From contig CBDAON010000004.1 of assembly GCA_965198065.1 (NCBI GenBank), positions 1,088,001-1,152,000 of the forward strand: a stretch of 64,000 nucleotides of DNA, written 5' to 3'. Under the pieces are notes generated by a model. It had not been told where the DNA came from. It worked only from the letters and a program-made list of their open reading frames with translations, and made no database searches. This DNA comes from Longimicrobiales bacterium. Lineage in GTDB: Bacteria > Gemmatimonadota > Gemmatimonadetes > Longimicrobiales > Gaopeijiaceae. This document shows positions 29,598 through 40,404 of this stretch, piece after piece. Each line of letters opens with the position of its first letter. The first letter of the stretch is position 1. The position numbers and the translations under genes were made by a program.

Positions 29598-30827
29598 TCA
29601 GTACCTCGGAATGGTGGGATCCACCTCACTCTGCCAGGCGCGGATACCGCCCTTCAGGTTCCAGACCTTGCGGAAGCCCGCGTCCTGGAGCCTCTTCAGC
29701 GCCTCCGCGCTCCTGGACCCCGCCTGGCAGTGGAGGACGATTTCCTCCGCGGAATCCAGCTCGGGCATCCGCTCGAGCAGGTTGTCCAGGGGGATCAGCT
29801 CGGCTCCGTACGCCCCTAGGTTCACGATTTCCCACTCGTGCGGCTCACGCACGTCCACGATCCGGAGACGGTCGCCCCGCTCGAGTCGGGCGTGGAGCTC
29901 CTTCGCGGTGACCGTGGGAACGTCCGACTGATCCTCCGCGGCTCCCTCCTCGTAGCCCGGGACACCGCAGAACTCGAGGTAGTCGATGAGCTCGGTGACG
30001 GTCGGGTTCTCGCCGCACACCGGGCACTCTGGGTTCTTGCGGAGCTTCAACGTCCGCCACTCCAGAGTGAGCGCGTCGAAGAGGAGGAGCCGCCCAATCA
30101 GGGGCTCCCCGCGGCCGATGATGAGCTTGATCGTCTCGAGCGCCTGCATGGCTCCGATGATGCCGGGGAGCACGCCGAGCACCCCGCCCTCGGCGCAGCT
30201 CGGCACCATCCCGGGGGGCGGCGGCTCTCGAAAAAGGCACCGGTAGCACGGGCCGTGGCGGGCGTCGAAGACGGACACCTGGCCCTCGAAGCGGAAGATG
30301 GAGCCGTACACGTTCGGCTTGCCCAGGAGAACGCACGCGTCGTTCGTGAGGTAACGCGTCGGGAAGTTGTCCGTCCCGTCCACGACCACGTCGTACGGGC
30401 GGATCACGTCCAGCGCGTTCTCGCTCGTCAGGCGGATTTCGTGAGGCACGACCTCGACGTGCGGGTTCACGTCCTTCAGGCGCTCGGCGGCGGACTCGAT
30501 CTTCGGGCGCCCGACGTCTTTCGTGCCATGGAGGAGCTGTCGCTGGAGGTTCGTCCGGTCCACGACATCGAAGTCCACGATGCCGACCCTTCCGATCCCG
30601 GCCGCCGCCAGGTACAGCCCTAAAGGGGACCCCAGCCCCCCGGCTCCGATCATGAGGACGCTCGCGTTCTTCAACCGGCGCTGCCCGGCCATCCCGACCT
30701 CAGGCATGATGAGGTGCCGGGAGTATCGCTCGATCTCCTCGTTCGACAGGTGGGGAAGCTCCCCCGCAGGAACGGTCCAAGGGGGGAAGCCCACTGGGCC
30801 GGTCGAGTTGCCGCTGGGCTTGCTCAT
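29598..30827 (-). CDS. moeB: MoeZ/MoeBR sulfur-carrier adenylyltransferase with C-terminal rhodanese domain
   Basis: RYSRH, GAGGLG, NLQRQ, DGTDNF, CYRC, CAEGGVLG, CPVC; rhodanese DVREPHE...HCQAGSRS. Confidence 0.93.
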   Translation of the reverse strand: MSKPSGNSTGPVGFPPWTVPAGELPHLSNEEIERYSRHLIMPEVGMAGQRRLKNASVLMIGAGGLGSPLGLYLAAAGIGRVGIVDFDVVDRTNLQRQLLHGTKDVGRPKIESAAERLKDVNPHVEVVPHEIRLTSENALDVIRPYDVVVDGTDNFPTRYLTNDACVLLGKPNVYGSIFRFEGQVSVFDARHGPCYRCLFREPPPPGMVPSCAEGGVLGVLPGIIGAMQALETIKLIIGRGEPLIGRLLLFDALTLEWRTLKLRKNPECPVCGENPTVTELIDYLEFCGVPGYEEGAAEDQSDVPTVTAKELHARLERGDRLRIVDVREPHEWEIVNLGAYGAELIPLDNLLERMPELDSAEEIVLHCQAGSRSAEALKRLQDAGFRKVWNLKGGIRAWQSEVDPTIPRY

Positions 30828-30904: not shown

Positions 30905-31543
30905 TCAGGCCGCCAGATGCTGGTGGATGTCGCGCGCGGCCTCGATCCGGACCTCGAGGGCAAGCCGGTCTCGGGGGTCGTTCGCGACCCGGGAGACCTG
31001 GACAGGGAGCCCTCCATAGACTGCGGTCACGGCCTCGCGGGCCACGTCCCTCAGGGCCTCGAATCCCGCGTCCGTGTTGGGCGCCCGGAGCCGGTCGTTC
31101 GACTCGATCCGCAGCAGGGAGGCGTCGAAGTCGAGCTTCCCCTGCACGCGCGGGTCGGTCTCAAGAAGCGCCGCCACGCGGAGCGCTTGCTTCAGGGTCG
31201 AGGCGATCGCTTCCGTTGCGTCACCCTCGAGCGGCACCCGTCGCTGGGCGAGGAGGCCGGACCGCCCGTCCGCGCAATCCAGGGCAAAGCTCACCTCCTG
31301 GGAGATCAGCATGATCCCCGGGCTGTCGGGCGCGTGCGCGTAGTCGGCCACATCCAGGAGGACCAGGTCCAGCGCCCCGTCCCGGATCCACTCGTGGAAG
31401 ATCGGGACGAACACCTCCACGTCGTCCTCAATCTCGGGGGGAGCGGACGTGTAGAGCTTCACGCAGATGCGATAGAGGCCCTCCAGGCCGGCCGATCCCA
31501 CGCTGCCCGCGGTCGCGCCCGCTCCGCCGCCGCCTCCGCTCAC
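30905..31543 (-). CDS. Hypothetical protein translationally coupled to sulfite reductase
   Basis: GTG overlaps sir stop; FVPIFHEWIR...LLDVADYAH...PGIMLI. Confidence 0.75.
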   Translation of the reverse strand: MSGGGGGAGATAGSVGSAGLEGLYRICVKLYTSAPPEIEDDVEVFVPIFHEWIRDGALDLVLLDVADYAHAPDSPGIMLISQEVSFALDCADGRSGLLAQRRVPLEGDATEAIASTLKQALRVAALLETDPRVQGKLDFDASLLRIESNDRLRAPNTDAGFEALRDVAREAVTAVYGGLPVQVSRVANDPRDRLALEVRIEAARDIHQHLAA

Positions 31544-33882
31544 AACGGAAACCCCACGCCCAATCCGTTTCCGCCCGTCCCCGCGGCCTGCGCCTCGAGG
31601 AGGCGGCTGTAACACCCGTGCGCCGCCTCGACGAAGAGCTGCGCTTCCTCAACCCGGCGATGGGCTTCGTCCCCGTCCCGGACCCGGCCCCCGGCCTCGT
31701 GCACGCTCTGGAGGTACCCCCACTCCTTCGCGCCCACGAAACGCTCGAAGAACAGCTCCGTATCGATGAACTTCATCTTGAACTCGGGGAACACGAGCGC
31801 AGGATCGCCCTTCTGATCCGGGTTCTCGGCCTTGAGGAGACCCTGGGCCGCGAGGATCATCGCCTGGTAGGCGAGCTGACCGGCTTCGTCGAAGCGCGCC
31901 GGTCCCGCTCTTTCGTCGTCCAGGAGCACCGACGCGTCGAACGCCTTGGACTCCGCGTTCGCAAGGCTGAATTGGGTGAGCGTCACGACCTCCCCAGCGC
32001 ACTCGCCCACGCCGATGTCCCCGATCGAGTACTCGCGCGCGTCGTGCCAGTCGACGTAGAAGGTCGGATCGGTCTCGTAGGCCGGCACGGCGAGGAGATC
32101 CCCGAGCCTCCCCTTGATCTCCTTCTTCCCCACCCGCACGACCCACGAGCGGAACGTCTCGTCCGACTCACGCTCGGTCGTGTAAAGGTCGAGGAGCCGA
32201 TCCACCGTCTCCGGGATCCGCTTGGACGGAACGGCACCCATGGCCAGCCCGTAGCTCCCCGCGTTCTCCTCGAGCGATCCGCCGAGAAGCAGCTGGAAGT
32301 GGGGCACCTTGTAGGCGCCCACGTTCCGGCTCGAGCCGTAGAAGCCGATGTCGGCGATGTGATGCATCCCGCACGAGTTCGGGCACCCGCTCACCTTGAT
32401 GTGCACGTCCTTGAGGACCGGATCCAAATGGAGCTCTCGCTCGTGCAGGCGCTCCCTGAGCTCGGCGCCAAGCCCGCGCGAGCTGGCGATCCCGAGCTTG
32501 CAGGTGTCCGTGCCCGGGCATGCGGTCACGTCGGTGATCGTCGCCGCGCCCGTAGACACGAGCTTCGCCTCGTGGAGCTCGTTGTAGATAGCGACCAAGT
32601 CCTTCTCGTGGATCCAGCGGAGGAAGAAGTTCTGGTCCACGTTCGTGCGGAGCGCGCCGGGAGCGTACTTCCGGACGAGGTCCGCGAGCCTGCGCGTCTG
32701 ACGGGACGTGATGTCGCCCAGGGGAAGGTTGATCGTGACCGCCACGGACCCCTCTTGGCGCTGCCGGTAGACGTTCGTCTTCGACCACTCCTCGAACCCG
32801 TCCGCCGGCACGGTCGACTCGTCGGTGACCGGCTCCGAGCGCCCCTCGATCTGGGGCAGGCGCGCCTCCTCGAGCCAGGCGTCCCAGCGCGGATCGGGCT
32901 CAAGCGCAGACAGCTCCTCCTCCACCACGCACTTGAACTCGTCGATCCCGAGCTTGGCCACGAGGAACTTGATCCGGGCCTTGTTCCGGTTCCGCTTCTC
33001 GCCCAGCCGGGCGAAGACGCGGGCGATCGCCTGTGAGAGCGGGAGCATCTGGGCTTCCGGCATAAACTCGTAGAGCACCTTGGCCACGTGCGGGACGGGC
33101 CCAAGCCCACCGCCCACCACCACCGTGAAGCCCCGCTCCTCCACGCCGTCCACCTCCCGGGTCGCCGCGACGAACCCGAGGTCATGCATCATGACGCGGG
33201 AGCAGCCCTCATGTCCGCATCCGGAGTATGCGATCTTGAACTTCCGCCCGAAGTCCTGGACGTCCGGATGACCGAGGAGGAAGGAGGCCTCGGCCTTCGC
33301 GTAGGGAGAGATGTCGAAGCGCTCGTCCGTGCAGATCCCCGCCTTGGGGCAACCGGTGACGTTCCGGACCGAGTTCCCGCACGCCTCCCGTGTCGTGATC
33401 CCAACAGCGGCCAGGCGCCGGTGCAGATCCGGCGTGTCCTCGATATCGACGAAGTGCAGCTGGACATCCTGTCGGGTCGTGATGTGGAGGACCGCGTTCG
33501 AGTACTCCTCCGCGCAGTCCGCGAGGACCTCGAGCTGCTCGGCCGTGACCTGCCCGTACGGGATCTTGATCCGCTGCATTCCCGGCGCGTCCCATTCGGT
33601 CTCGGGCCCCTTCGTAAGCCCGAGGCGCCGGAAGGGGAGCTCCTGGGTCTTGGTCCCATCGTAGCGCTGACCGTTGTCGTAGCGCTGGCCGTAGGCGCCC
33701 CGCCGGAGGCGAAGCTCGGCGAAGACCTTGTCCTCGATCTTTCCCTGTTTCCGGAGCTCCATCTGCGCCTCGTAGGAGTCGATCTCCTCCGTCACGTGGG
33801 GAGGAATGCTATCCGCGAGCCGCACCTTCCAGCTCCACTGCCCCGGACTAGTCGCGCCGGTGTTCGTCTCGCCTGGGCTCAT
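31540..33882 (-). CDS. sir: Ferredoxin-type sulfite (nitrite/sulfite) reductase, siroheme/[4Fe-4S]
   Basis: HITTRQ, CGNSVRN, RKFKIA, CPGTDTC and SGCPNSCG ligands; downstream of cysH. Confidence 0.9.
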   Translation of the reverse strand: MSPGETNTGATSPGQWSWKVRLADSIPPHVTEEIDSYEAQMELRKQGKIEDKVFAELRLRRGAYGQRYDNGQRYDGTKTQELPFRRLGLTKGPETEWDAPGMQRIKIPYGQVTAEQLEVLADCAEEYSNAVLHITTRQDVQLHFVDIEDTPDLHRRLAAVGITTREACGNSVRNVTGCPKAGICTDERFDISPYAKAEASFLLGHPDVQDFGRKFKIAYSGCGHEGCSRVMMHDLGFVAATREVDGVEERGFTVVVGGGLGPVPHVAKVLYEFMPEAQMLPLSQAIARVFARLGEKRNRNKARIKFLVAKLGIDEFKCVVEEELSALEPDPRWDAWLEEARLPQIEGRSEPVTDESTVPADGFEEWSKTNVYRQRQEGSVAVTINLPLGDITSRQTRRLADLVRKYAPGALRTNVDQNFFLRWIHEKDLVAIYNELHEAKLVSTGAATITDVTACPGTDTCKLGIASSRGLGAELRERLHERELHLDPVLKDVHIKVSGCPNSCGMHHIADIGFYGSSRNVGAYKVPHFQLLLGGSLEENAGSYGLAMGAVPSKRIPETVDRLLDLYTTERESDETFRSWVVRVGKKEIKGRLGDLLAVPAYETDPTFYVDWHDAREYSIGDIGVGECAGEVVTLTQFSLANAESKAFDASVLLDDERAGPARFDEAGQLAYQAMILAAQGLLKAENPDQKGDPALVFPEFKMKFIDTELFFERFVGAKEWGYLQSVHEAGGRVRDGDEAHRRVEEAQLFVEAAHGCYSRLLEAQAAGTGGNGLGVGFPL

Positions 33883-34846: not shown

Positions 34847-34880
34847 AAATCAAAAGCCCCGACCTCTTGGAGGTCGGGGC
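34847..34880 (-). terminator. Intrinsic terminator (attenuator) between leader ORF and cysH
   Basis: GCCCCGACCTC-CAA-GAGGTCGGGGC-TTTTGATTT. Confidence 0.85.
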
Positions 34881-34905
34881 CGAAGTCCTCTGCGCGATCG
34901 GGCGG

Positions 34906-34989
34906 CTACGCGAAGTGTCTCCGGGACCCACCCCCAGCGGGGGAGGCCGGACAAGAACACATCGCGCAACACATCGCGGTCATAGCCAT
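34906..34989 (-). CDS. Met/Cys-rich leader peptide MAMTAMCCAMCSCPASPAGGGSRRHFA (27 aa)
   Basis: 4 Met + 4 Cys in the first 13 codons; lies between promoter and terminator upstream of cysH. Confidence 0.8.
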   Translation of the reverse strand: MAMTAMCCAMCSCPASPAGGGSRRHFA

Positions 34990-36898: not shown

Positions 36899-37726
36899 AT
36901 GACCCGAAAGCGACCGGGAACCGTATACCTCGTCGGGGCCGGCCCCGGCGACCCGGATCTTCTCACCCGAAAGGGCGCGCGGCTCCTGGCCGTGGCGGGT
37001 GCGGTCGTGCACGACGCCCTCATTGACTCCAGGCTTTTTACGGAGGTCGCGCCCGGCGCCGAGCTGTACGACGTGGGGCGGCGAGCGGGGACGAAGCGAC
37101 TGGACCAACCCCAAGTGAACGAGCTCCTGATCAAGCTCGCGGGGGTCCATGAGATCGTGGTTCGACTGAAGGGGGGAGACCCGTTTGTCTTCGGTCGTGG
37201 GGGAGAGGAGGCAATCGCGCTCAAGGCCGCCGGCATACCGTTCGAGGTGGTTCCTGGAGTCACGTCAGGGGGTGCGGTCCCCGCGTACGCGGGGATCCCC
37301 CTGACCCACCGGGGAGTGGCCTCGTCGGTGACGTTCCTCACCGGGCACCAAGTCACGTCTGCCCCGGAGGGGGCGGAAGCCTCGAGCCCCATCACCCGGG
37401 AGGGGACGCTCGTGATCTTCATGGGCCTCCTCAGGGTCGAGGAGATCGCGCGGGGACTGATCGAGCGAGGTCTATCGCCGGACACGCCGACGGCGGTGAT
37501 CCAGTCGGGGACCTACGCGTCCCAGCGGACCGTCACGGGAGTGCTGGCGGACATCGGGGAGCGGGCGCGGGCGGGTCGCATTTCGCGCCCCGCGCTCATC
37601 GTGGTCGGGGACGTCGTGGCGCTTCGCGAGGGGATCCGCTGGTTCCCCGAGGCGGGAGTCGAAACAGCGACCGGCAAAGGCCCCCCCGAGCGGGGAGTGG
37701 CTCAGGGCGCGGACAAAGCGAAGTGA
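36899..37726 (+). CDS. cobA: Uroporphyrinogen-III C-methyltransferase (siroheme synthesis)
   Basis: VYLVGAGPGDPDLLT, RLKGGDPFVFGRGGEE, PGVTS, GIPLTHR. Confidence 0.93.
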   Translation: MTRKRPGTVYLVGAGPGDPDLLTRKGARLLAVAGAVVHDALIDSRLFTEVAPGAELYDVGRRAGTKRLDQPQVNELLIKLAGVHEIVVRLKGGDPFVFGRGGEEAIALKAAGIPFEVVPGVTSGGAVPAYAGIPLTHRGVASSVTFLTGHQVTSAPEGAEASSPITREGTLVIFMGLLRVEEIARGLIERGLSPDTPTAVIQSGTYASQRTVTGVLADIGERARAGRISRPALIVVGDVVALREGIRWFPEAGVETATGKGPPERGVAQGADKAK

Positions 37727-37947
37727 GTGTAGTTCTTCTCGATGTAGGCCGTCCACTCCGGGGGCACGTCGGTATCCGGAAAGATCGCCTGAACCGGGCA
37801 CTCGGGCTCGCAGGCCCCGCAGTCGATGCACTCTTCGGGCTGGATGTAGTACTGGTCGTCCGCGTCGTAAATGCAGTCCACGGGGCAGACGTCCACGCAG
37901 CTCGCGTCCTTCGTGCCGATGCAGGGCTCGGCGATGATGTAGGTCAT
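37702..37947 (-). CDS. Ferredoxin (7Fe/8Fe FdxA type)
   Basis: MTYIIAEPC...CVDVCPVDC...CIDCGACEPECP. Confidence 0.93.
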   Translation of the reverse strand: MTYIIAEPCIGTKDASCVDVCPVDCIYDADDQYYIQPEECIDCGACEPECPVQAIFPDTDVPPEWTAYIEKNYTHFALSAP

Positions 37948-38471
37948 AGACCGTCGGCTGAGGTAGTTCTTGCGCTTGAGTACCTCTCCTCCCCCCGACT
38001 CCGTTCTGCCGGAAGCTCCGACACGGGGACCCGCAGGGGCGACCCGGGCGCCGCCGGATTCCAGCGCCACGCCCCCATGGCCGCCCAGTCGTCCGAGGCG
38101 TCCTCCCCCACGATGAGCCAAAGCACTTCGGGCCACAGCTCCATGTATCCCCGATCGATCGAGGACGGAACCGGCCGCCCCACCGGGTGGGAGTGGTAGA
38201 ATCCCACGATCTCGTGCCCCGTTCCCCGGAGCGAGCGTTCCTCCTCGATCACCCGTCGAGGATCGATCGTGAACCGCGTTCGCCTTCGACCCGCCGGAGC
38301 CTCGTTGGGGCACGGGATCGCGCGCGTGACCCAGATGTCCCCGTCCTGGATCCGCCCCACCAAGAGCCCACACGCCTCGTCGGGAGACGCCCGTCTCGCG
38401 TCCTCCACCACGGTCCGCGAGACGTCCGGGGAGAGGTAGGCGCCCTCGGTCCACCCCTCCCCACCGCTCAC
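37944..38471 (-). CDS. JAMM/MPN+ (Mec-like, M67) metalloprotease
   Basis: EACGLL...GFYHSHP...PSSID JAMM motif. Confidence 0.9.
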   Translation of the reverse strand: MSGGEGWTEGAYLSPDVSRTVVEDARRASPDEACGLLVGRIQDGDIWVTRAIPCPNEAPAGRRRTRFTIDPRRVIEEERSLRGTGHEIVGFYHSHPVGRPVPSSIDRGYMELWPEVLWLIVGEDASDDWAAMGAWRWNPAAPGSPLRVPVSELPAERSRGEERYSSARTTSADGL

Positions 38472-38758
38472 CAGTCGGGCCCCACACCCCCCGCGATGGA
38501 GGGAACGATGGATACCTCGTCGCCTTCCTTCACGGGCGTGTCCAGATCCTTCTCGTAACGGACGTCGGTGCCGTTCACGAACACGTTCAGGAACTGTCGC
38601 ACCTCGCCCTGCTCTCCGAGGATCCGGCCGAGGAGATCGGGGTGCGTACTCCCGAGGTCGTCGAACAGCTCCCGCACGGTAGCCCCTTCCGCCTGGAGCT
38701 CCGCCTGTCCGTTCGTGAGCTTACGAAGCGCGCTCGGCACTCGGACGGTAACGCTCAT
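38468..38758 (-). CDS. CysO/MoaD-like ubiquitin-fold sulfur carrier with C-terminal extension after GG
   Basis: VRVPSALR...LNVFVNG..VR....LDT.V..GDEVSIVPSIAGG-VGPDW. Confidence 0.92.
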   Translation of the reverse strand: MSVTVRVPSALRKLTNGQAELQAEGATVRELFDDLGSTHPDLLGRILGEQGEVRQFLNVFVNGTDVRYEKDLDTPVKEGDEVSIVPSIAGGVGPDW

Positions 38759-40032
38759 CCCTCTACCTCCTCGCTCGCGGCCAGTCGCTCCACCTCGGCG
38801 AGCCTCGGCTGGATGGGATCCTCCAGCCGGAACGTGCCGCGCGCGGCATCCGGAGTCTTGAGCCCGTTCCCCGTGATGCAGAGAACGGTGGGTCCGTCAC
38901 GCCGGAGCCGACCGTCCCGGACCAGGCGCGCCGCAGCGGAAACCGTAACGCCTCCGGCCGTTTCCGTGAAGACGCCATCCAAGGTCGCCAGCAGGCCGAT
39001 CCCGTCAACGATCTCCGGGTCGGACACCGCCTCCCCCCAGCCTCCGGTCTCCTGGATCGTCTCCACCGCAAACAGACCGTCCGCCGGATTTCCGATCGCG
39101 AGCGAGCGTGCGATGGTGTTGGGTTTCTGAATCGGCCGCACCTGCCGCTCTCCGGCCTGCACCGCGTTCACGATGGGTGCGCAGCCCGACGCCTGTGCGC
39201 CGAACATCCGGGGCTCCGGACCCTCCTCGACGAGGCCGGTCTTCATGAGCTCGCGGAAGCTCTTCCGAACCTTCGTGATGAGCGACCCGCCCGCCATGGG
39301 GACGACGACGTTCGCGGGCAGCGTCCAGCCGAGCTGCTCGGCGATCTCGTACCCCATGGACTTCGAGCCCTCGCTGTAGTAGGCCCTGAGATTGACGTTC
39401 ACGATTCCCCATCCGAACCGGTCCGCCACCTCCGCACAAAGCCGATTCACATCGTCGTACACCCCCCGTACGCGGACCACCCTCGCCCCGTGCACGCCCG
39501 TCGCAACGATCTTTTCCACCTCCAGGTCCTCGGGAATGAAGATCCAGGCGCGGAGGCCCGCGGTCGCGGCCTGTGCGGCCACCGCGTTCGCTAGGTTGCC
39601 TGTCGACGCGCATCCGACCACGTCCATGCCGAACTCCCCCGCACGTTGGAGAGCGACCGCAACGACTCGGTCCTTGAACGACTGCGTCGGATGGTTCGAC
39701 GAGTCTACCTTGATCCAGAGATCATCGATGCCCAGCGCGGCTCCCAGCCTCGGAGCTCGGAGGAGCGGCGTCCACCCGACCCCGAGCCCGCGGGTCGGCT
39801 CCTCGGCAACGGGCAGGAGCTCGCGGTACCGCCACAGGTCGGTAGGTCGCGATGCGATCCTCTCCCGCGTGAGCCGACCGCGGAGCCGCTCAAGATCGTA
39901 GACGACCTCTAGAGGACCAAAGCACTCCTCGCAGACGTGATGCGGGCCGGCTTCCGTCTCCGTCCCACAAATTCGACATCGAAGCGTGCTCAGCGCCGCG
40001 GGGGCGAGGGGTGCCAAGTTCGTCTCGCTCAT
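38755..40032 (-). CDS. Threonine-synthase-like PLP enzyme (fold type II) with N-terminal Zn ribbon
   Basis: CRIC...CEEC, PTQSFKDR, ASTGNLA, EGSKS, PMAGGSL, ITGNGLK; start ATG 40032. Confidence 0.88.
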   Translation of the reverse strand: MSETNLAPLAPAALSTLRCRICGTETEAGPHHVCEECFGPLEVVYDLERLRGRLTRERIASRPTDLWRYRELLPVAEEPTRGLGVGWTPLLRAPRLGAALGIDDLWIKVDSSNHPTQSFKDRVVAVALQRAGEFGMDVVGCASTGNLANAVAAQAATAGLRAWIFIPEDLEVEKIVATGVHGARVVRVRGVYDDVNRLCAEVADRFGWGIVNVNLRAYYSEGSKSMGYEIAEQLGWTLPANVVVPMAGGSLITKVRKSFRELMKTGLVEEGPEPRMFGAQASGCAPIVNAVQAGERQVRPIQKPNTIARSLAIGNPADGLFAVETIQETGGWGEAVSDPEIVDGIGLLATLDGVFTETAGGVTVSAAARLVRDGRLRRDGPTVLCITGNGLKTPDAARGTFRLEDPIQPRLAEVERLAASEEVEG

Positions 40033-40150: not shown

Positions 40151-40197
40151 AGAAAAAGGAAAGAGCCCCGACCTCTCTGGAAGAAGGCCGGGGCTCT
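40151..40197 (-). terminator. Intrinsic terminator (attenuator) between leader ORF and thrC-like gene
   Basis: AGAGCCCCGGCCT-TCTTCCAGAG-AGGTCGGGGCTCT-TTCCTTTTTCT. Confidence 0.85.
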
Positions 40198-40220
40198 CTC
40201 GCTCCGTCGGGTCCGCTTGC

Positions 40221-40328
40221 CTAGCGCCTGGCGCCTCCGGACACGACCGTCCCCGATGCGCCTTCCTCCATGGAGGAAGCCGACATCGAACAACGGCACA
40301 TGCACATGTAGCCGCGAGCGACCCGCAT
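40221..40328 (-). CDS. Met/Cys-rich leader peptide MRVARGYMCMCRCSMSASSMEEGASGTVVSGGARR (35 aa)
   Basis: MCMCRCSM cluster; AGGAG RBS 10 nt upstream; lies between promoter and terminator. Confidence 0.8.
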   Translation of the reverse strand: MRVARGYMCMCRCSMSASSMEEGASGTVVSGGARR

Positions 40329-40375
40329 TATCGTCCGACTCCTCTGCTTCGGATGAGCGGCCCCGACGAGCGCAA

Positions 40376-40404
40376 ACGGTACCGAAGCAGGCCAGAGGCG
40401 TCAA
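40376..40404 (-). promoter_or_regulatory. sigma70 promoter of the leader-thrC-like operon
   Basis: TTGACG-N17-TACCGT. Confidence 0.75.

Follow-up and report, generated by a model that had tools for sequence, protein, structure and literature searches.

A predicted attenuator with methionine and cysteine control codons upstream of a likely metM operon in a Longimicrobiales bacterium (Gemmatimonadota)

The minus strand of the window that we analysed (64,000 nucleotides of contig CBDAON010000004.1, positions 1,088,001 to 1,152,000) carries at 40153-40404 a leader that is, by its anatomy, a classical ribosome-mediated transcription attenuator, the regulation itself being predicted. Judging from the sequence and from folding models, it would probably switch on the predicted metM-metO-mec-fdx genes when charged Met-tRNA, and secondarily Cys-tRNA, is short. 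Classical leader-peptide attenuators include trpL, hisL, thrL, pheL, leuL and ilvL, and methionine genes are normally under the control of SAM riboswitches, T-boxes or repressors; the element described here is of the classical type and its unusual part is the Met with Cys specificity that we infer for it on a likely metM operon. The leader is composed of:

40376-40404, minus strand: putative sigma-70-type promoter (-35 at 40404-40399, 17-nt spacer, -10 at 40381-40376)
40339-40343, minus strand: putative leader ribosome-binding site, a pentamer 10 nt 5' of the ATG, which is a long spacing
40221-40328, minus strand: leader ORF, 35 codons and a stop
40284-40307, minus strand: control codons 8-15, with 3 Met and 3 Cys
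40254-40288, minus strand: hairpin 1:2 (pause / anti-antiterminator), -20.9 kcal/mol
40179-40269, minus strand: antiterminator 2:3, in which 40269-40251 pairs with 40193-40179
40153-40200, minus strand: predicted intrinsic terminator 3:4 with its U-rich tail (helix 40200-40159, U tail to 40153)

A previous reading of these letters alone, hereafter the sequence-only reading, had named a promoter, an RBS-like pentamer, an ORF, a hairpin, alternative pairings, a terminator and a U tail, and all of these are present on the minus strand as named. The two promoter hexamers with their 17-nt spacer match the consensus at only 8 of 12 positions, below the reporting threshold of the consensus scanner, which remained silent, but the assignment is supported because the hexamers are conserved in homologous leaders: the same two at 17 nt are found in 10 of 23, and close variants in the remaining 3 of the 13 nearest. 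In two homologous leaders the start follows the -10 box by 7 nt, and these two are probably leaderless. The folding of the leader has a z of -4.46, none of 200 shuffles being equally stable. Among the genome's 16,019 small ATG ORFs, 4 have at least 6 Met/Cys within 12 codons, and the terminator scan also caught two of these, the metM leader and a leader before cysH; a loose genome-wide attenuator scan returned 220 candidates and was too noisy. The leader combines clustered Met/Cys codons in a short ORF, a predicted terminator and a mutually exclusive antiterminator that is kept in homologs.

To describe the conservation of this arrangement we used an order-wide set of 401 genomes, in which the first gene of the operon is present in 27 at E <= 1e-120. 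A Met/Cys leader with a terminator lies directly upstream in 20 of the 27; in the other seven, the gene is inside an operon (6 genomes) or is a broken, truncated match (1), so that in the 20 genomes where it heads an intact operon the leader and terminator are found in all 20. Two genomes from a class search and one metagenome locus bring the set to 23 leaders, the counts of which are not independent because the genomes are kin. The metagenome scan gave a Met/Cys leader at 1 of 80 loci, while at the other loci the homologs were distant and many of them showed a SAM-I-like motif, recognised by pattern only. Taking as the sensing zone the 9 codons before the antiterminator (starts from the swap-test positions given below, one adjusted by eye), we counted 58 Met, 40 Cys, 13 Thr and 4 Ile among the 207 zone codons of the 23 leaders, for backgrounds of 1.5% Met, 0.8% Cys, 5.2% Thr and 4.2% Ile in 11 ORFs of the window. 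The zone has Met in 23/23 leaders and Cys in 20/23, and 14 of the 23 have Met at position -5 from the antiterminator. Outside the Met/Cys cluster the peptide is unconserved, while the start, frame, stop and codon-to-antiterminator spacing are conserved. These comparisons support Met as the conserved control codon, with Cys common yet dispensable, and they also favour the sulfur-amino-acid rather than threonine signal that the sequence-only reading had proposed.

The relative weight of the two amino acids could be the reverse, with Cys-tRNA, reporting the sulfur supply, as the working signal of the same attenuator and the Met codons minor. Cys accounts for 3 of the 6 control codons, of which codons 11 and 13 are inside the predicted switch window, one homologous leader has 5 Cys and 1 Met, leader initiation might also slow under Met shortage, and Cys-codon attenuators have precedents in the parts available of bioRxiv 10.1101/834739 and PMC8632094. 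We nevertheless consider this unlikely, as the zone is without Cys in three homologous leaders and without Met in none, one leader being almost purely Met, and as Met recurs at position -5, the same gene is under SAM control in other lineages and the cysH leaders are, by eye, visibly more Cys-rich than the metM leaders. Met-tRNA, with Cys-tRNA second, remains the signal that we retain.

In the RNA, segment 2 (40269-40251) can pair either with segment 1 (from 40288) or with the terminator 5' arm (40193-40179), with duplex energies of -26.0 (1:2), -26.4 (2:3) and -28.7 kcal/mol (3:4). The sequence-only reading had not named the main antiterminator, a 9-bp helix formed by 40269-40261 and 40187-40179; the 6-bp pairing that it did name exists but is only the second half of this helix, and the inner 9-10 bp pairing that it also named is present but shows no compensatory pair, its covariation score being lower than that of every one of 500 shuffles. 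Among the 13 nearest homologs, hairpin 1:2 has compensatory changes at 4/8 pairs and two column triplets change jointly across 1:2 and 2:3. Covariation of the antiterminator in fixed columns is modest (21/500 shuffles as high) because its registers slide. Using an alignment-free swap test, we obtained a mean of -24.9 kcal/mol for the leaders' own antiterminator duplexes versus -21.6 kcal/mol for swapped ones, and 0 of 20,000 permutations were as good (2 of 20,000 in a 13-leader subset with roughly one leader per genus).

In the proposed mechanism, a ribosome held at codons 11-16 would cover segment 1, which would free segment 2 for pairing with the terminator 5' arm and let RNA polymerase read through, and a ribosome past about codon 19 would cover segment 2, so that the terminator would form. 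Equilibrium folding with the RNA masked up to 13 nt past each codon placed the antiterminator in the nascent chain only at codons 11-16, and it was gone from codon 19; a reach of 10 or 16 nt moves this codon window by one codon. The permissive zone overlaps the Met/Cys cluster in the 23 leaders (in some, its last codons only) and ends a few codons past the cluster, and Thr, His, Phe and Arg leaders from these genomes show the same placement. When the mask is limited to the footprint, most states also have the 5' UTR segment 40367-40360 paired with the terminator 5' arm, and the antiterminator forms only at codons 15-16. The terminator always wins in full-length equilibrium folding, and read-through therefore depends on kinetics. 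The hypothesis that, when no ribosome is present, Met leaders read through by default was dropped as unsupported, the ribosome-free read-through probability ranging from 0 to 0.91 among the 23 leaders and being equally wide among the Thr/His/Phe/Arg control leaders. The RNA run X1 (0.09 share, as low-depth contigs of a related strain) was uninformative on expression or on the 3' end.

We judge it improbable that the element is something other than codon-read, such as an undescribed riboswitch, a protein-binding leader, a general translation-stress sensor or a functional Cys/Met-rich peptide. Translation of the leader is predicted, with a long RBS spacing, and a stretch in the 3' half of the ORF that is well conserved among the 13 nearest homologs, without covariation, might be a binding site. 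On the other hand, no Rfam family reached the gathering threshold across the whole window and the leader gave only chance-level matches (none with E < 0.17), by a covariance-model check that detects SAM-II in relatives and that agrees with the sequence-only reading in finding no known riboswitch; moreover, what is kept in the ORF is its Met/Cys cluster, start, frame, stop and spacing rather than its peptide, and similarly built Thr, His, Phe and Arg leaders are found in front of the corresponding genes.

Two such control leaders are found in the same genome, one Thr-rich before thrA-thrB-thrC and one His-rich before hisG:

G000:C4 about 2472700-2472870, minus strand: Thr-rich leader before thrA, classical-looking
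G000:C4 about 1280830-1281000, minus strand: His-rich leader before hisG, classical-looking

Other leaders were observed in relatives. An Arg-rich leader before argC that has both a terminator and an antiterminator (L280:140-300; G003:C349:3134-3293) is a candidate arginine-codon attenuator, and a Phe-rich leader before pheA (L006, in G056) and a Thr-rich leader before thrA (L004, in G003) are each divergent from a metM leader. Leaders before aspartokinase/thrA genes mix Thr with Met and/or Cys in L277 (G485:C134:3137-3319), L267 (G024:C21:46827-47011) and L285 (G306:C1:3146561-3146751), which fits Thr and Met drawing on one common supply of O-phosphohomoserine.

A covariance model built from the leaders and searched over 70 chosen genomes gave matches in 31. 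We inspected 32 further match positions, which were mostly Met/Cys leaders with some of Thr, His and Arg type and about 6 that were noise or reverse-strand echoes. Reading the target gene names from translations, related Met/Cys leaders precede cysH, cysJ, cysG/cobA, cysNC, moeZ, mec, metY, a Met-type ABC transporter, a sulfite exporter, an ATP-grasp gene and a panB-like gene. The ATP-grasp gene is under a Cys/Met leader in L291 and L292, in tandem with SAM-II in L292, and a panB-like gene lies directly 5' of metM in many Gemmatimonadota, often under SAM-II (L120, L123, L132, L135, L008, L272).

The genes downstream of the leader, and the neighbouring operon with its own leader, are:

38755-40032, minus strand: thrC-like PLP enzyme (PRK08197/PALP), likely MetM homocysteine synthase
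38468-38758, minus strand: ThiS/MoaD sulfur carrier, likely MetO, with Gly-Gly then 5 extra residues
37944-38471, minus strand: JAB/JAMM protease, likely Mec
37702-37944, minus strand: 4Fe-4S ferredoxin, last gene of the operon, with cobA convergent on the plus strand
34856-34989, minus strand: sister attenuator, a 27-codon Cys/Met leader with terminator before cysH-sulfite reductase-orf-moeZ
29598-30827, minus strand: MoeZ/MoeB-rhodanese, likely sulfur-carrier activator, closing the neighbouring cysH operon

The gene order given in the sequence-only reading (thrC-like, carrier, JAMM, ferredoxin) is thus correct, but the head gene is likely to encode a MetM homocysteine synthase and not a threonine synthase. 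According to the parts available of PMC13759103 and PMC12172450, the MetM/MetO/Mec/MoeZ thiocarboxylate route was characterised in Streptomyces albulus by Hasebe et al. 2024, and in the same portion of PMC13759103 GapMind 2026 lists these four proteins as a homocysteine route and MetM is described as often misannotated as threonine synthase. As in S. albulus, the thrC-like gene, which adjoins the ThiS/MoaD carrier, the JAB protease and MoeZ are all in the window; the S. albulus metM differs in having a SAM riboswitch before it (PMC12172450, as far as available) where an attenuator is predicted here, and the route here is predicted from the genes. The thrC-like protein has 52% identity to the product of a Nonomuraea (actinomycete) gene that is flanked by a SAM-I riboswitch and a ThiS-type gene, compared with 29% identity to the threonine-synthase homolog on contig C3 of its own genome; a PDB search with it returned threonine synthases only. 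The carrier gene follows the thrC-like gene in 23/23 leader loci. On this indirect basis the operon is likely metM-metO-mec-fdx and its end product therefore homocysteine/methionine. MetH is present in the genome, and MetX gave no match in the genome search, an absence that is unproven because the assembly is 88% complete.

Three further observations concern these genes. A 236-aa ORF between the sulfite reductase gene and moeZ (window 30905-31615, minus strand) has no Pfam/NCBIfam match. The mec gene tends to accompany carriers with residues past Gly-Gly and is mostly missing where the carrier ends at Gly-Gly. Carriers of Acidobacteria have extensions past Gly-Gly yet no mec in the locus.

The genome also holds the following genes related to threonine synthesis:

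G000:C4:2467900-2469210 (L308, about 2298): thrC of the thr operon, with a 2-bp frameshift
C3:44037-45473: third threonine-synthase homolog

The frameshift is seen in DNA runs X2 and X4, one of which may be the source of the assembly, and is absent in X5 and X7, which come from other strains; the frameshifted thrC is a strain-specific pseudogene. That the thrC-like gene of the window is a working threonine synthase under a threonine-responsive leader is very improbable, since, although its protein scores above thrC cut-offs, the strain's thr-operon thrC is frameshifted in 2/4 DNA runs and several homologous leaders have Thr codons directly past the last Met, the leader is not of the thrL type with a Thr/Ile cluster before thr genes (the single Thr codon and absence of Ile reported by the sequence-only reading were confirmed, the Thr codon being no. 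27, outside the zone, where a stall would favour termination), Thr and Ile together make up 17/207 zone codons, which is about background, thrABC carries its own Thr leader, the runs of two other strains show an intact thr-operon thrC, as do 3 of the 4 relatives that were checked (no output was obtained for the fourth), a third homolog exists on C3, and the sulfur-carrier gene is present in every leader locus. By analogy with a cyanobacterial homolog of the thrC-like enzyme, which is a threonine synthase/deaminase according to the available part of PMC12172450, the window enzyme could moonlight.

In other lineages, the leader's place in front of this gene is taken by SAM-I (RF00162) and SAM-II (RF00521) riboswitches, although these differ from the leader in binding a ligand and needing no translation, and neither matches it. 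SAM-I precedes the gene in 13/14 tested loci, a count that is biased because the 14 were picked from 67 non-leader loci for short length or a visible motif. SAM-II precedes it in 15/20 class-level loci, directly or at the head of the operon, and lies upstream in tandem with the leader in 6 of the 12 leader loci tested, where a hairpin and a U-run are visible by eye between the two. A search of the genome gave no match to SAM-I and none to SAM-II, the absence of SAM-II not being established as control genomes likewise gave none. A SAM-II-like sequence with a terminator, recognised by eye and unmatched in Rfam, lies before metH (G000:C4 about 1952480-1952570, plus strand) and is possibly a divergent riboswitch. 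We infer that the attenuator stands in for a SAM riboswitch or is stacked behind one; the leader is conserved at the site that a SAM riboswitch takes in other lineages, and the cells therefore probably sense their methionine supply via stalled ribosomes. Swaps between riboswitches and leader peptides are described in general terms in the available part of PMC2965389.

The open-access literature that we searched contained no Met-codon attenuator and no report of attenuation in Gemmatimonadota. The leader resembles classical attenuators (as in the accessible portion of bioRxiv 10.1101/834739) in its short control-codon ORF, its 1:2, 2:3 and 3:4 helices, its terminator and its amino-acid operon, and thrL in having two amino acids read together, and differs from them by its Met and Cys control codons, its lack of a match to Rfam leader families, its occurrence in Gemmatimonadota and its capacity to be stacked behind SAM-II. 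The closest Cys-codon case is uORFC-8-2 before cysS of Rhodobacterales, which likewise has a Cys-codon uORF and an intrinsic terminator, predicted in both, but which, in the part of PMC8632094 available, has two Cys codons and no Met, precedes a synthetase gene and belongs to another phylum. As excerpted from bioRxiv 10.1101/834739, the polycysteine leaderless sORFs of mycobacteria also control sulfur operons by stalling at codons for a sulfur amino acid, shown experimentally there for Cys, but they are translational, hide a Shine-Dalgarno site, have no intrinsic terminator switch and read Cys only. The mycobacterial Cys-codon element was predicted earlier in PMC1262725, the available part of which places no such element upstream of Met operons of Actinobacteria, and a speculative initiator-tRNA uORF before fthC is mentioned in the accessible text of PMC11109978.

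With somewhat less assurance than for the metM leader itself, we favour the view that Gemmatimonadota may have their whole sulfur-amino-acid regulon on Met/Cys attenuators, with more Met ahead of Met genes and more Cys ahead of sulfate-reduction genes, some of these attenuators being stacked behind SAM-II to form a gate with two inputs (low SAM and low Met-tRNA), and with the riboswitch dropped in the present lineage. The occurrence on one gene of SAM-I, SAM-II, SAM-II with an attenuator or an attenuator alone would be a clean case of regulatory replacement, and the leaders would give independent regulatory support for re-annotating such "threonine synthases" as MetM. If the reading is true, methionine would join the amino acids read by classical attenuation, although every leader starts with Met, and a Met attenuator would raise the question of how an element that needs initiator Met-tRNA can report a shortage of elongator Met-tRNA.
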